NCBI GenBank assembly: GCA_034716235.1
Contig: JAYEHH010000037.1
Span: 566-64,565 of the forward strand
Length of the DNA: 64,000 nucleotides
Direction of reading: 5' to 3'
Origin: Patescibacteria group bacterium
GTDB taxonomy: Bacteria; Patescibacteriota; Minisyncoccia; CAIUEV01; JAHKAQ01
The first letter of the stretch is position 1. The number at the start of each line of letters is the position of its first letter. The position numbers and the translations under genes were made by a program. This document shows, one piece after another, positions 58,335 through 61,880 of this stretch. The notes below the pieces were generated by a model. That model was not told the origin of the DNA. It worked only from the letters and a program-made list of their open reading frames with translations, and did no database searches.

Positions 58335-58566
58335 AAATAAACCGCTGGGCACAAATAGTCGAGCGGTGTTTAAAATAGTGTCCCTTAACAATTTAAGAGC
58401 AAGATAATTGTACAATTCTAATTTTGTACGGTTACCCAACTATTTTTTTTAGAGAGTTTGATCCTGGCTCAGGACGAACGCTGGCAACGTGGATAAGGCA
58501 TGCAAGTCGAGCGGCGCGACTGCCAACTCCTAACATTTAACCAATAACAAACATTAAGCATCTAAG

Positions 58567-58917
58567 ATGTTGAGGTATAGAAATTTTAAGGTCTATAAAG
58601 ACGCAAAAGATTTTCATAAATTAACGGTTAAACTAGCTTCTCAATTTTCTGGAGGCTTCAATTATTTAAGTAACCAGATCCGGAGAAGTTCACTATCGGT
58701 TGTACTGAATATTGCCGAGGGATCGGCAAAGGGTTCAGATAAAGATTTTAATTGTTATTTAAAAAACTCATTGGGCTCAATGAGTGAAACTTTAGCAGGA
58801 TTTGAAATTGCTTTAGAGTTTCAATTAATTTCTCTTTCAGATTTTGAAAATATTGAGGCTAAGGCTAAAAGTATTATTAAACAACTGGGAGGTTTTTCAA
58901 AAAAGTTAAAAGGTTAA
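58567..58917 (+). CDS. Four-helix-bundle 'rRNA intervening-sequence (IVS) protein' encoded inside the first 16S insertion
   Basis: 116 aa. KDAKDFHKLTVKLASQF...SNQIRRSSLSVVLNIAEGSAKGSDKDFNCYLKNSLGSMSETLAGFEIA matches the family normally found in 23S IVS elements (RRS/A-x-SI/V-x-NIAEG; ...GS..E...L). Confidence 0.7.
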   Translation: MLRYRNFKVYKDAKDFHKLTVKLASQFSGGFNYLSNQIRRSSLSVVLNIAEGSAKGSDKDFNCYLKNSLGSMSETLAGFEIALEFQLISLSDFENIEAKAKSIIKQLGGFSKKLKG

Positions 58918-60257
58918 TAGTTAGAAGTTGGTAGTTGCGTAGCGGCAAACGGGTTAGTAACACGTGAGAATCTACCCTAAAGTTTGGAATAACTCGGAGA
59001 AATCCGAGATAATACCAAATATGTTCTTCGGAGTAAAGCCTTCGGGCGCTTTAGGAGGAGCTCGCGTACTATCAGCTTGTTGGTGAGGTAATGGCTCACC
59101 AAGGCTATGACGGTTAGGGAGCGTGAGAGCGTGATTCCCAACATTGGCACTGAAACACTGGCCAAACACCTACGGGTGGCTGCAGTCGAGAATCTTCCAC
59201 AATGGGGGAAACCCTGATGGAGCGACGTTGCGTGCGGGATGACGGCCTTCGGGTTGTAAACCGCTTTTGTAGGAGATGAATACGCTCAACTTTTTTGATT
59301 TTATTTTTGATTATGTTTTTTATAATTAATAGAATTAAAAAACTTGGGCGTATGACAGTATCCTTTCGAATAAGAGGTTGCTAACTCTGTGCCAGCAGCA
59401 GCGGTGATACAGAGACCTCGAGCGTTGTCCGGATTTATTGGGCGTAAAGGGTTCGTAGGGGGTTTGAAGGGTTTCAAGTAAAATCTTAAGGCTCAACCTT
59501 GAGTTGGCTTGAAAAACTAGCAAACTAGAGCATACCAGAGGTGTTTAGAACTCATGGTGTAGGAGTGAAATCCGTTGAGATCATGGGGAATACCAAAGGC
59601 GAAGGCATAACACTAGGGTATTGCTGACCCTGAGGGACGAAAGCGTGGGGAGCGAAATGGATTAGATACCCATGTAGTCCACGCTGTAAACGATGAGCGC
59701 TAGATATTTGAGGCTTCGACCCCTTGAGTGTCACAGCTAACGCATTAAGCGCTCCGCCTGGGAAGTACGGCCGCAAGGCTAAAACTCAAAGGAATAGACG
59801 GGGATCCGCACAAGCGGTGGAGCGTCCGGTTTAATTCGATAATAAGCGTGGAACCTTACCAGGACTTGACATCCCACGATAGCTTTAGAAATAAAGTTTC
59901 CTTCGGGCGTGGTGACAGGTGCTGCATGGTTGTCGTCAGCTCGTGCTGTGAAGTGTTCCGTTAAGTCGGGAAACGAGCGCAACCCTTGTCATGTGTTAAA
60001 TTTCTCACATGATACTGCTCGGGTTAACCGAGAGGAAGGCAGGGATGACGTCAAATCAGCATGGCCCTTATGTCCTGGGCTACACGGGCGCTACAATGGC
60101 AAATACAAAGGGTAGCCAAGTCGTAAGACGGAGCTAATCCTCCAAAGTTTGTCTTAGTTCGGATTGAAGGCTGCAACTCGCCTTCATGAAGCTGGAATCG
60201 CTAGTAATCGTGAATCAGCCACGTCACGGTGAATATGTTCCCGGATCTTGTACTCAC

Positions 60258-61176
60258 AATAAAAGCGCCAGGCAGTTTAATAATCCAGAGAGTTAAAATC
60301 TCTCCCTCTGTTCGTCGCAGAGCGTAATAGAAAGATAGGCCTTAAACCGCGAGGTTGAGGCTGAAGGATCTTAAAATAAACTGCAGTCAGATATTTTCAC
60401 AGGCAGTATTGACCCTTGATTGGGCGGTGAGCATGGGGAAAATACGCTAAAAATGCCTATCTGAATGCAGGGAACGGAGTATTAAATAACCCTGGGAGAT
60501 CTTATATTGTCCCACCCAAATTTTTAGTGACTAATAAAAATTGTTATATATTTATTATATGATGAGTAGTCACCATAAATTTGGGCGGGTAATGAAACTT
60601 AAGCAATGTAAGAAGTCAGCTGAGTCATAGTAACTTTCAATGCTATATTGAAACGAAGGACTCATTTTAATGTTATGAAGAAAATAAATTTCGACTATAT
60701 CGTTGGATTGGTAGATGGAGAAGGAAGTTTTACGGTTTATGTAAAAAATCCCTATCTATTGAAAAAAGTAAAGCGTCGATCCAAGGTAGAACCAAGATTT
60801 TATCTTAAGCTTATAGACAAAGATAAAGAGAGTCTCTATAAGCTAAAAGAATTTTTTGGGTGCGGAAATGTTTATTTTCAAAGAGATAGAAGAGCCAACC
60901 ATAGAAATTGTTATCGGTATGAAGTAGTAGCAAGGCAAAATTTGCAGAAGATTATAATACCTTTTTTCAAGAAACATGAATTGAGATTGAGATCAAAGGC
61001 TTATGATTTTAAAATTTTCTGTAAAATAATGGAAAAAATAATAAGGAAAGAACATTTAACTCAAAATGGTTTGGAAAGAATATTCTTCTTGAAGATGAAA
61101 ATGCATTAGAACTCGTCGTATGCGGGAAATCCGCAGGTACGATGGGAACGTCAATGCCAAGTTTCTGGCAGATAAT
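60258..61176 (+). mobile_element. Intron-like insertion (~919 nt) in the 16S 3' domain at about E. coli position 1399/1400, carrying a homing-endonuclease ORF
   Basis: The conserved TGTAC(A/T)CAC and CGCCCGTCACACC halves of the 1390-1410 region are split by 0.9 kb; boundaries are approximate (+/- a few nt). Confidence 0.65.
60648..61109 (+). CDS. Single-motif LAGLIDADG homing endonuclease
   Basis: 153 aa; FDYIVGLVDGEGSFTV (LAGLIDADG motif), ...FFGCGNVYFQRD... typical family architecture. Confidence 0.85.
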   Translation: MKRRTHFNVMKKINFDYIVGLVDGEGSFTVYVKNPYLLKKVKRRSKVEPRFYLKLIDKDKESLYKLKEFFGCGNVYFQRDRRANHRNCYRYEVVARQNLQKIIIPFFKKHELRLRSKAYDFKIFCKIMEKIIRKEHLTQNGLERIFFLKMKMH

Positions 61177-61880
61177 CGCCCGTCACACCAAGAGAGTTGG
61201 TAAGTCCTGAAAGATCGCTTTAAGCGGCATTACGGACAGATCAGCAATAGGGGTGAAGTCGTAACAAGGTATCCGTAGGGGAATCTGCGGATGGATCACC
61301 TCCTTTCTAGGGAGAAAAATCTTGATTGCTTTCTCGTTTTTCACGAGATACCTGCAATCTACATTGGTCGAGAGATAACCTAAATTTATTTAGAATATCT
61401 TTCTGATAAGTTTGATTTTATCAAGCTTATCAAGGTTCTGGAGAGACCTAAACTGCTCCACTAAGTCCTCAGCAGAGTACGCCGAGGCATGTTGGGTAAC
61501 CATATAAAATTAGAATTTAAAAATCTTGTTTGTTAAGTTTTGGGAAGAGTTTGAGAGCAAAAATTGGCACAGAGCCGAAGCTTAAACCTCCATATGCCAC
61601 TCGTGTGGTAATACATTGAAAAATGTCGGAGTTGCTCGGACTTTTAGTAAAAGAGCCGTAGAGAATTTTCTACAATCTGCTCAAGTCATTATTGACTATA
61701 AACAAGGGATGGCACAGAATCAGCTGACTGCGCTGGGTTAAACCAATTAAGCCCACCCTCTTTCAAACTTTCCCAATCAATTTTAGGGAATCTAATATGA
61801 TTCCCTCCAAAACTTAGCAAACAAGTAATAAATTTCTCCGGAAACGATTCTGAAGAACTAAAAAGGGGGGAGATTTTAAA

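Follow-up and report, generated by a model that had tools for sequence, protein, structure and literature searches.

The 64,000-nucleotide stretch of DNA analysed here, referred to as the window, carries on its forward strand a single 16S rRNA gene (positions 58451-61308) with two ORF-bearing insertions inside. The host is an uncultured bacterium of the CPR (Patescibacteria). In our main reading, to which a probability of about 85% is given, these are two unrelated selfish elements, an intervening sequence (IVS) in helix 6 and a group II intron, which are removed from the same 16S transcript in different ways. A reduced-genome bacterium would then handle the selfish insertions of one essential rRNA transcript in two ways: at a helix tip that is dispensable, by cleavage that probably involves no ligation, and in the decoding centre by ribozyme splicing, which is obligatory. 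Both kinds of insertion are known from the CPR, as is their occurrence together, so the locus is a clean example rather than a new phenomenon and its value is mostly that of a well-resolved case. Added to the literature are the dominance of helix 6 as a site, the purifying selection on the ORFs, the staggered intron junctions across 16S positions 1395-1404 and the common occurrence of a CGU triad in domain V.

The 16S rRNA gene and its exons

The gene is complete and has a length of about 2.86 kb, or about 1.5 kb minus both insertions; all features described below lie on the forward strand. Its core matches the Rfam model SSU_rRNA_bacteria (RF00177) with 1183 bits, the 5' piece (58446-58960) aligns with positions 1-113 of the SSU model and the 3' piece (61175-61293) is matched by an SSU model. 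The ends of the gene were read directly, the 5' end as AGAGTTTGATCCTGGCTCAG from position 58451 and the 3' end as GGATCACCTCCTTTC to approximately 61308. Both ends are placed wrongly in the Rfam global alignment. Insertion-bearing 16S genes such as this one defeat 16S primers and annotation pipelines.

Exon or fragment 1 (58451-58510) corresponds to E. coli positions ~8-67 and runs through the 5' strand of helix 6, based on alignment with L092, a relative with a 92% identical 16S rRNA; many loci have a 16S 5' end that is 91-92% identical to it. Exon or fragment 2 (58944-60257) extends from the 3' strand of helix 6 to C1399 according to the Rfam alignment, is 92% identical to L092 and includes an AT-rich expansion of ~58 nt at 59286-59345. 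Exon 3 (61177-61308) covers C1400 to the 3' end of the gene, with the anti-Shine-Dalgarno sequence CCUCC. An earlier note on this DNA had described two protein-coding insertions, one with a four-helix-bundle protein and one with a LAGLIDADG endonuclease, in a 16S gene of CPR origin. The family matches and the origin of the host bear this out, and its coordinates were correct nearly to the base, exactly so for the second insertion.

An intervening sequence in helix 6

The first insertion (58511-58943) was delimited by comparison with L092. It places 433 nt where the hairpin tip of helix 6 is 17 nt long in L092 and in two further relatives. All three share the upstream gene and 92% 16S identity with the window and lack the insertion, so its presence is sporadic. 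The arms of the insertion, at 58514-58534 and 58920-58940, pair over 20 bp with one mismatch and several G-U pairs, both in the minimum free energy fold and in an inter-arm duplex calculation. The fold of 58495-58960 has an energy of -135 kcal/mol (z -7.8), the inter-arm duplex of 22 bp one of -36 kcal/mol (z -7.5). Duplexes of 18-56 bp (median 31 bp; median z -7.4) are formed by 23 out of 23 helix-6 IVSs analysed, despite arm sequences that cannot be aligned, and the terminal duplex is the sole conserved RNA feature among the helix-6 insertions of relatives. At E<=1, neither the group I nor the group II models of Rfam matched insertion 1. The rRNA helix here has, in place of its short tip, a much longer stem-loop made by terminal inverted repeats, with at least ~20 bp of double-stranded RNA, which is the form of an IVS; the stem of 20-22 bp and the lack of an intron match agree with the earlier view of this insertion as IVS-like rather than intron-like.

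Two other fates of insertion 1 were weighed against excision without ligation. It could be retained in the mature 16S rRNA as a long expansion on the solvent-exposed 'spur' of helix 6, with the ORF read from the rRNA itself. Helix 6 juts from the body of the 30S subunit and tolerates length variation, and the same gene has its 58-nt expansion in another helix. However, the long near-perfect stems found in all 23 helix-6 IVSs are the substrate type of RNase III, homologous 23S elements undergo excision, and CPR insertions are reported to be missing from transcripts (Brown 2015, as relayed in PMC11270868); retention is considered unlikely. Less likely again is removal followed by rejoining of the 16S halves into a continuous rRNA through an unrecognised ribozyme or protein ligase. 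Group I-like insertions do harbour three of the 18 PF05635 ORFs counted in CPR 16S genes (Tsurumaki 2024, PMC11270868), but a group I or II signal is missing from insertion 1 at the threshold given above, only the terminal duplex is conserved among relatives, and known IVSs are not religated.

The four-helix-bundle protein of insertion 1

ORF1 (58567-58917) encodes a four-helix-bundle protein of 116 amino acids, belonging to the family PF05635 / TIGR02436 ('23S rRNA IVS protein', S23p). The match to PF05635 has an E-value of 7e-22 and 78 bits (cut-off 33.8), that to TIGR02436 an E-value of 9e-23 and 80.6 bits (cut-off 24). The AlphaFold2 model (pLDDT 96) has four helices and the fold of XCC0516, BT_0352 and the Avd protein of diversity-generating retroelements (DGR), with TM scores of 0.95 to 2GSC, 0.83 to 2RLD and ~0.8 to Avd (4DWL/8UB7).

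The helix-6 copies of this ORF are under purifying selection, with identities of 0.58, 0.69 and 0.40 at the three codon positions and a dN/dS of 0.06-0.19 in the four closest pairs. On account of this selection the ORF1 protein is probably produced in the cell. It was absent from the protein collection searched, possibly because the ORF is located within an rRNA gene. On reading of the sequence, no obvious Shine-Dalgarno motif was seen 5' of either ORF1 or ORF2.

A group II-like intron at 16S position 1400

The second insertion, 919 nt long (60258-61176), separates 16S position 1399 from 1400 and is flanked by UGUACUCAC and CGCCCGUC. The exon junction was set at 1399/1400 since the A1396U change occurs in intron-less CPR 16S genes too. 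Judged from its sequence, the insertion is a group II (IIC-like) ribozyme intron, with domains I-VI supported by covariation, except for domain IV, which is supported by complementarity.

The 5' end is non-canonical. At 60258-60268 a terminal linker, AAUAAA, precedes AGCGC where the canon has GUGYG, so that the end (AAUAAAAGCGC) is made up of the linker and a GCG remnant. This arrangement is conserved as AAUAAA[A/C/U]GCGC in 66 homologous introns, and a 5'-terminal linker is known for the rns-1396 family (PMC13190283). At the 3' terminus the intron ends with ...AAU at 61176, of which AU agrees with the group II 3' AY. The last five nucleotides of the 5' exon, CUCAC (IBS1, 60253-60257), are complementary to GUGAG (EBS1, 60427-60431) in a hairpin loop of domain I, and both are invariant in 42 aligned introns.

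For the 5' part of the intron (domains I-III), RNAalifold on the 42 introns yielded 83 consensus pairs, 69 of them with compensatory changes. Domain I (60268-60495) is closed by a stem of 60268-60272 with 60491-60495, which varies between CG, UA, GC and AU pairs. Domain II (60501-60612; stem 60501-60509 / 60604-60612) shows compensatory changes relative to L092 and contains an AT-rich hairpin of ~80 nt (60511-60591) that is lineage-specific and missing in most relatives. J2/3 and domain III (60613-60663, AAGUCAGCUGA; GAGUC-AUAGUA...GAAG-GACUC) have compensatory changes both relative to L092 and in the family alignment. The Rfam model group-II-D1D4-1 scored 28.7 bits in the window (E 0.005), below its gathering score of 35, and 35.7-42.4 bits in four relatives, above it. 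With RF00029 the intron of the window gave no match, and one relative reached 32.4 bits against a gathering score of 40.

Domain IV (60665-61111) has a basal stem of 60665-60672 with 61104-61111 around the endonuclease ORF; the complementarity of its strands was noted on inspection of the sequence and of the family consensus, CUCUAAUG / CAUUAGAG. Domain V (61112-61146) consists of a lower stem of 10 bp, a 2-nt bulge (AG), an upper stem of 4 bp and a GAAAU loop, and its helix is 99.4% paired over 47 introns. The triad position is occupied by C61114, G61115 and U61116. Among the 47 introns the G-U of the triad is invariant, with CGC in 26 and CGU, accompanied by a compensating U-A pair, in 20. 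The window departs from the canon in having CGU instead of AGC or CGC and in its GAAAU pentaloop; the CGU variant is common in this 16S-1400 intron family. Domain VI (61150-61173) has 3 + 5 bp and an AGUUUC loop, with double-sided changes at all eight pairs and a C-G to U-A change relative to L092; its pairing leaves no bulged branch-point A on the 3' strand. Domains V and VI together are 97.5% paired, with double-sided changes at 14 of 22 pairs, a result reached by none of 500 shuffles, and slid controls showed at most 48% pairing. As the canonical GUGYG and the branch-point A are both missing, ribozyme activity is assumed from conservation.

LAGLIDADG genes reside mostly in group I introns, and these are frequent in CPR rRNA (134 of 378 16S insertions), so the alternative that insertion 2 is a LAGLIDADG-bearing group I intron was also weighed; a group I P1-P9 fold had been proposed as a check. 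Intron_gpI (RF00028) produced zero matches in 60240-61200 even at E<=10, however, in a scan whose equivalent detects group I introns elsewhere in three related loci (63 bits in one of them). The group II domains V and VI, J2/3 with domain III and the EBS1-IBS1 pairing are all present and show covariation. A group I identity is therefore refuted and has next to no probability left.

The LAGLIDADG endonuclease of insertion 2

ORF2 (60675-61109), within domain IV, encodes a single-motif LAGLIDADG homing endonuclease of 144 amino acids. Its start codon is probably the ATG at 60675; an alternative TTG start at 60648 would give 153 amino acids. The product matches PF00961 (LAGLIDADG_1) with an E-value of 3.5e-18 and 66.8 bits (cut-off 23.1), and an NCBI protein that carries the annotation of a Patescibacteria homing endonuclease has the same sequence (100% identity). 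Across 36 homologues the LVDGEGSF motif does not vary (G11, L12, D14, G15, E16, G17, S18 and F19). The nearest solved structures are single half-domains of I-PanMI, I-SmaMI and I-OnuI (E 1e-27). One LAGLIDADG enzyme from a CPR rRNA insertion, I-ShaI, has been characterised biochemically (Tsurumaki 2024, PMC11270868).

That the gene is an assembly chimera, which the earlier note had named as a possible refutation, or a decaying pseudogene with a working 16S gene elsewhere, is scarcely credible: the source is a metagenome-assembled sequence and no 23S rRNA gene lies within 2.7 kb 3' of the 16S gene, but the 16S exons are intact and conserved, an independent Logan contig is 100% identical over the intron and the downstream flank, a relative retains the upstream MFS gene, the 16S gene and the intron alike, the helix-6 design recurs in 32 independent genome assemblies, the intron pairings and both ORFs are under selection, and CPR genomes have one rRNA copy as a rule.

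Occurrence in the CPR

The survey examined the surroundings of 80 four-helix-bundle homologues, the closest ones in species-representative genomes. The same helix-6 site hosts 32 of the 80, and 23S motifs were found near just two. Where the four-helix-bundle subfamily of ORF1 occurs in CPR rRNA genes, it is predominantly in helix 6. The expectation that this family is normally found in 23S and not in 16S rRNA is thus reversed in this group, in line with Table S4 of Tsurumaki 2024 (PMC11270868), where PF05635 ORFs in CPR insertions number 18 in 16S and 4 in 23S. Of these 18, 15 lie in 16S insertions without a group I or II signature, in a set of 380 CPR 16S genes (Tsurumaki 2024, PMC11270868). 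The CPR 16S PF05635 ORFs (Brown 2015; Tsurumaki 2024, PMC11270868) share clade, gene and protein family with the window. In the text of Tsurumaki 2024 they are scattered over several sites and helix 6 is not singled out, in contrast to its share in the present survey.

The combination of both insertions had been called unusual, which the survey contradicts: among 13 genes with a helix-6 IVS that extend to position 1400, four also have a group II-like insertion within 16S 1395-1404. Related group II-like introns sit at staggered junctions across these positions. In the data of Tsurumaki 2024 (PMC11270868), CPR group II-like introns are restricted to 16S position 1400, where 53 were counted; LAGLIDADG_1 is present in 39.

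Proposed processing and mobility

We infer RNase III cleavage without ligation, hydrolytic splicing, endonuclease activity and translation of both ORFs. At helix 6, RNase III would cut the IVS stem (~21 bp) and the ends would be left unligated. This would leave a mature 16S rRNA in two pieces, ~65-70 nt on the 5' side and ~1.45 kb on the 3' side, joined by rRNA pairing. In the 23S IVSs of Salmonella, Leptospira and Coxiella, the stem is cut by RNase III and no religation takes place. The Coxiella 23S IVS, which measures 428-444 nt, has a stem of 28 bp and contains an S23p ORF, is excised by RNase III without ligation (PMC4990558). A motif search for the RNase III gene (rnc) covered the 64-kb window, where none was found.

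The intron at 1399/1400 interrupts a strand of the decoding centre and would have to be spliced with exon ligation. The first splicing step is probably hydrolytic rather than branching, because a 5'-terminal extension replaces GUGYG and domain VI has no bulged A. A homodimer of the ORF2 product would cut intron-less 16S rDNA (...CTTGTACTCACCGCCCGTCACAC...) and spread the intron by DNA homing.

A further role for ORF1 can be put forward tentatively: the helix-6 element may be a distinct, widespread CPR element with a functional four-helix-bundle protein, whose role is tied to the element. This would be compatible with the purifying selection, the recurrence at one site in Microgenomates and Parcubacteria, and the gain or loss between close relatives, and we regard it as a minority reading. 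If it is true, the ORF1 protein could form pentamers that bind RNA, as does Avd, to which it is structurally related, and might act on the pre-16S or the excised IVS RNA, for example in processing, in stabilising the excised RNA as mRNA or in the spread of the element. The subfamily would in that case have its main rRNA location in helix 6 of 16S rRNA, and the element would not be a strayed passive IVS of the 23S type.

Comparison with known systems

The IVSs in 23S helix 45 of Coxiella burnetii, Leptospira and Brucella (PMC4990558) are similar in size to insertion 1 (428-444 nt in Coxiella, 433 nt here). The S23p IVSs of 23S rRNA are also alike in their terminal inverted repeats, which form a stem of 20-28 bp capping an rRNA helix, in carrying the same protein family in the loop and in their sporadic distribution among relatives. 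They differ in the host site, known to be 23S helix 25 or 45 and here 16S helix 6. The S23p ORF of Coxiella is decaying and apparently untranslated (PMC4990558), whereas the CPR ORFs are under purifying selection.

Introns in 16S 1396-1400 are likewise found at the CPR site 16IS9, position 1400 (Tsurumaki 2024), and in Thiotrichaceae such as Thiomargarita, as the rns-1396 IIC-LHE family (Salman 2012; Liu 2026, PMC13190283). In common with insertion 2, these have a single-motif LAGLIDADG_1 ORF in domain IV, no reverse transcriptase, a 5'-terminal linker ahead of a GUGYG remnant, and IBS1/EBS1 with no EBS2 identified. Most members have the IIC-type CGC triad, while the window has CGU with the compensating U-A, as in 20 of the 47 relatives. 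The splice junction is 1399/1400 in the window and 1396/1397 in rns-1396, the Thiomargarita intron being compared by description, and the additional ~80-nt hairpin in domain II sets the window intron apart.

Group II introns of fungal mitochondrial rRNA (Toor & Zimmerly 2002; Li et al. 2011), as far as they are summarised in PMC4424553, are alike in having an rRNA host gene and a LAGLIDADG ORF, in splicing 5' of the GUGYG motif and in the loss of the bulged A and EBS2. According to the same account they are IIB1 introns at other sites with mostly double-motif enzymes, whereas the window intron is bacterial, IIC-like and single-motif. The same departure from GUGYG is the defining mark of LHE-carrying rRNA lineages, and the missing bulged A suggests hydrolytic splicing, as for the introns that Li et al. 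2011 studied. ORF2 itself most resembles the fungal enzymes of the I-OnuI family.

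A 16S rRNA gene interrupted at two sites

The window, taken from a public metagenome-assembled Patescibacteria genome, contains a single bacterial 16S rRNA gene on the forward strand, scoring 1183 bits with the Rfam bacterial SSU model. The global Rfam alignment confines the gene ends to 58832-60309. In the sequence itself, the gene starts with AGAGTTTGATCCTGGCTCAG at 58451 and ends with GGATCACCTCCTTTC near 61308. When 58440-58960 was scanned alone, model positions 1-113 spanned 58446-58960, and the 3' terminal helices were matched at 61175-61293. From the directly read ends and these partial-model alignments, the gene was deduced to be about 2.86 kb long and to hold two large insertions, an intervening sequence (IVS) in helix 6 (insertion 1, 58511-58943) and a group II intron between positions 1399 and 1400 (insertion 2, 60258-61176). 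The earlier note had placed both insertions correctly within a few bases and was right about their protein families and the CPR context; its observation is confirmed and its interpretation partly supported. An assembly chimera was ruled out by independent, identical Logan contigs (100% over 60181-61700) and by the recurrence of the helix-6 arrangement in 32 loci. Both insertions are of known kinds and form a clean example, neither contradicting nor majorly extending current understanding. The refinements, namely helix-6 dominance, selection on the embedded ORFs, staggered group II junctions and a common CGU triad, are all small.

A third expansion, non-coding and very AT-rich, adds about 58 nt to the V3 region (59286-59345, Rfam model positions ~455-460). 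It holds a 12-nt tandem repeat (TTTTTGATTATA, 2.4 copies) and is covered by the 92%-identity alignment with the relative L092 (58944-61567). No 23S or 5S gene was found within the window. The ~840 bp 3' of the 16S gene (61309-62146) are devoid of tRNA, 23S or notable ORFs and are bordered downstream by two minus-strand ABC-transporter genes; within the window, the 16S gene is unlinked to 23S.

Anatomy of the helix-6 insertion

A single relative, represented by contigs L092, L093 and L094, shares the upstream MFS transporter gene and 92% identity over 58944-61567 with the window. At the position of the 433-nt insertion (58511-58943) it has 17 nt. Helix 6 of the relative forms a short hairpin, GAAUGCGC-UUCG-GCGCAUGG, the tip of which is replaced in the window. 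The insertion is delimited by complementary arms at 58514-58534 and 58920-58940 (+ strand), which pair over 20 bp, several of them G-U, with a single mismatch. The folding energy is -135 kcal/mol (z -7.8) for the region and -36 kcal/mol (z -7.5) for the 22-bp inter-arm duplex.

Between the arms lies ORF1 (58567-58917, + strand), encoding 116 amino acids and matching PF05635 (E 7e-22) and TIGR02436 (E 9e-23). Its AlphaFold2 model (pLDDT 96) has four helices and superposes on XCC0516 (2GSC, TM 0.95), on BT_0352 (2RLD, 0.83) and on the DGR accessory protein Avd (4DWL/8UB7, TM about 0.8). A look-up of the exact ORF1 sequence returned no record, and its nearest proteins are at most 68% identical. 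Group I and group II models gave no match anywhere in insertion 1, and an intron of either group was dropped for this element.

Distribution and selection of helix-6 insertions

A profile built from 39 of the closest proteins of ORF1 was used to collect the 80 closest loci from species-representative genomes, nearly all CPR. BLAST with the 16S exons of the window placed the ORF at the same helix-6 site in 32 of these: the first ~60 nt of 16S stop 60-90 nt 5' of the ORF and the 16S continues downstream. The comparison loci L001-L005 show this placement likewise, and the hosts include Sungbacteria, Liptonbacteria, Taylorbacteria, Paceibacterota, Levybacteria, Woesebacteria and Shapirobacteria. 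Two loci had 23S motifs, one had another 16S site, and among the remainder 20 lacked any rRNA. Among rRNA sites, helix 6 is the one that dominates in this protein subfamily (32/80). Copies without rRNA context are free-standing genes; in L006 and L007, which have no 16S or 23S signal, the ORF is flanked by SurA-like and DprA genes. At L079 (53-340), a contig labelled Cyanobacteriota and possibly a mis-binned CPR contig, a four-helix-bundle ORF stands directly 5' of a 16S aligning from about E. coli position 500, a different site from helix 6.

Each of the 23 helix-6 insertions whose ORF is intact has a flanking duplex of 18-56 bp (median 31 bp, median z -7.4), and the arm sequences are wholly different among them. 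Identity by codon position in the embedded ORFs is 0.58/0.69/0.40, and dN/dS has a median of 0.26, with values of 0.06-0.19 in the four closest pairs; judged by these codon patterns, the ORFs are evolving as proteins, under selection. Of about 30 helix-6 IVSs, four (L014, L015, L058, L074) have lost part or all of the ORF and kept the long terminal stem, and the RNA stem appears to outlast its gene.

Several helix-6 IVSs have arms made of 7-8-nt tandem repeats, with TTAACAAA repeated 3-4.6 times on one arm and its complement on the other (for example L065, 3428-3465 and 3852-3886). These recall the heptamer repeats 5' of the S23p ORF in Coxiella. The window itself has only a weak AAAAGTT array of four copies at 58901-58929.

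Proposed removal of the helix-6 IVS

Insertion 1 has the classical IVS design: an rRNA helix is capped by a long terminal duplex, the loop holds an S23p ORF, and occurrence is sporadic. The 23S IVS of Coxiella (428-444 nt, 28-bp stem, S23p ORF) is removed by RNase III and the rRNA is not religated (PMC4990558). CPR rRNA insertions are reported to be absent from transcripts (Brown 2015, as cited in PMC11270868). Design, precedent and reported removal together suggest that insertion 1 is cut out by RNase III. Removal followed by ligation of the 16S ends is a minor alternative, set against the unligated Coxiella rRNA, and so is retention of the insertion in the 16S, set against the reported absence of CPR insertions from transcripts. 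Excision by RNase III would leave the 16S in two pieces, a 5' fragment of ~65-70 nt and one of ~1.45 kb. The RNase III signature ERLEFLGD was not found in the six frames of the 64-kb window.

Group II identity and structure of insertion 2

The exon sequence UGUACUCAC ends at 60257 and, after 919 nt, the exon restarts with CGCCCGUC at 61177. Intron-less CPR 16S genes likewise read UGUACUCACCGCCCGUC, which fixes the junction at 1399/1400 and makes the U at 1396 a lineage trait; the reading of this A-to-U change as a sign that UCAC is intronic was ruled out by the same genes. In many CPR 16S genes, intron-bearing and intron-less alike, UGUACUCAC replaces the near-universal UGUACACAC (A1396U, window 60255; seen in L010, L016, L024, L070, L076 and L084). 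Universal primers of the 1390-1406 type are also affected by this substitution in the decoding-centre strand.

The earlier note had proposed a check for group I structure. RF00028 gave no match in insertion 2 even at E<=10 and group II domains covary, so a group I intron was ruled out. The group-II-D1D4-1 model matched the window intron at 60590-60661 with 28.7 bits, below the gathering score of 35, and group-II-D1D4-3 gave a sub-threshold match; D1D4-1 exceeded its gathering score in four relatives (35.7-42.4 bits), and RF00029 reached 32.4 of 40 bits in one. From 80 metagenome loci, 66 full-length homologues of the intron (822-993 nt) were extracted. All are preceded by TTGTACTCAC and start with AAUAAA[A/C/U]GCGC or a near variant, and in nearly all the ORF stop lies exactly 67 nt 5' of the 3' splice site.

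A domain V/VI model was 97.5% paired over 47 distinct 3' ends, with double-sided changes in 14 of 22 pairs; none of 500 shuffles matched this, and slid controls were at most 48% paired. In domain V (61112-61146, + strand), a 2-nt bulge separates a lower stem of 10 bp from an upper stem of 4 bp, which is closed by a GAAAU loop. At the triad position (61114-61116; columns 8-10 of alignment A5), 26 of the 47 introns have CGC, the IIC form, and 20, including that of the window, have CGU compensated by a U-A pair. Described triads are usually AGC or CGC, from which a U at the third position departs; across the aligned copies, CGU is a common, base-pair-compensated variant of this intron family. The CGC triad among homologous introns favours class IIC. 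The IIC intron of Oceanobacillus iheyensis presumably shares the motifs GGGGAGGUCUG...AGAAGUCAGCAGAAGUCAUAGUACCC...GGGGAAGGAC and CGCCGUAU...GUACGGUG. Domain VI (61150-61173, + strand) is without a bulged adenosine; a branch A at 61170 was ruled out by covariation, which shows its pairing with U61155.

RNAalifold on 42 distinct 5' parts yielded 83 pairs, 69 with compensatory changes. These include the domain I closing stem (60268-60272/60491-60495, + strand). EBS1 (GUGAG, 60427-60431, + strand) lies in a hairpin loop and is the complement of the invariant exon end CUCAC. RNAalifold also gave domain II (60501-60612, + strand) and J2/3 with domain III (to 60663, + strand). The window copy of domain II has an extra AT-rich hairpin of ~80 nt (60511-60591), which is absent or much shorter in most homologous introns and strongly diverged in the 92%-identical L092. 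At the base of domain IV (60665-60672/61104-61111, + strand), the sequence just 5' of ORF2 pairs with its last codons and stop. The ORF2 end, …K M H * (AUGCAUUAG), is thus one strand of this stem, so that the invariant protein C-terminus and the RNA helix constrain each other.

ORF2 probably starts with the ATG at 60675, giving the 144-aa product found in databases, and is 100% identical to an NCBI entry, 'MAG: LAGLIDADG family homing endonuclease [Patescibacteria group bacterium]'. It matches LAGLIDADG_1 (E 3.5e-18) with one motif, in which LVDGEGSF is invariant. The nearest solved structures are half-domains of the fungal I-PanMI, I-SmaMI and I-OnuI. The family is large and tight, with 1126 matches, the best 120 of which are at least 65% identical.

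Lineage, splicing and spread of the intron

Insertion 2 belongs to an already described group II lineage carrying LAGLIDADG homing endonucleases (LHE). At CPR 16S position 1400, 53 such introns were reported, 39 with LAGLIDADG_1 and none with a reverse transcriptase (PMC11270868). In the bacterial 'rns-1396' IIC-LHE family, a linker forms the 5' terminus, EBS2 is missing and domain IV encodes an endonuclease with a single motif (PMC13190283). The class of the Thiomargarita intron is given second-hand as IIB1 in PMC4424553 and as IIC in PMC13190283.

A 5' extension replacing GUGYG and the missing branch A resemble fungal rRNA group II lineages (Li et al. 2011, as cited in PMC4424553), and both features point to a first splicing step that would be hydrolytic. 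The intron interrupts the decoding-centre strand, and a functional 16S therefore requires that the exons be ligated. Spread is presumed to proceed by endonuclease-driven DNA homing, the putative ORF2 cleavage substrate being a duplex with CTTGTACTCACCGCCCGTCACAC. I-ShaI is a biochemically characterised LAGLIDADG enzyme from a CPR rRNA insertion (Tsurumaki 2024).

Co-occurrence and staggered junctions

In four of the 13 16S genes with a helix-6 IVS that reach position 1400, a group II-like insertion lies within 1395-1404. L013 has the same junction as the window. In L061 the insertion (6151-7075), which has a domain V-like element, lies between 1395 and 1396, after C1395; in L036 the insertion (from ~6655, D1D4-1 36 bits) follows CGCC, and in L033 one with a J2/3-DIII motif (from ~6345) follows UGUACUC. 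The junctions of L061, L033, the window family and L036 are staggered over an 8-nt stretch of the decoding-centre strand; such introns are lumped as '1396' or '1400' in the literature. Up to 16 insertions occur per CPR 16S gene (PMC11270868), so the pairing of IVS and intron is expected by chance and is not special. The earlier note had considered this combination, and an IVS protein in 16S, unusual, which does not hold for CPR, given the co-occurrence in 4/13 genes and the 32/80 loci at helix 6.

Several related 16S genes also contain group I introns (RF00028, 32-63 bits) at other positions, at L158 (1947-2381), L150 (1460-2219), L114 (1871-2172) and L013 (5019-5551), some of them 3' of the group II intron.
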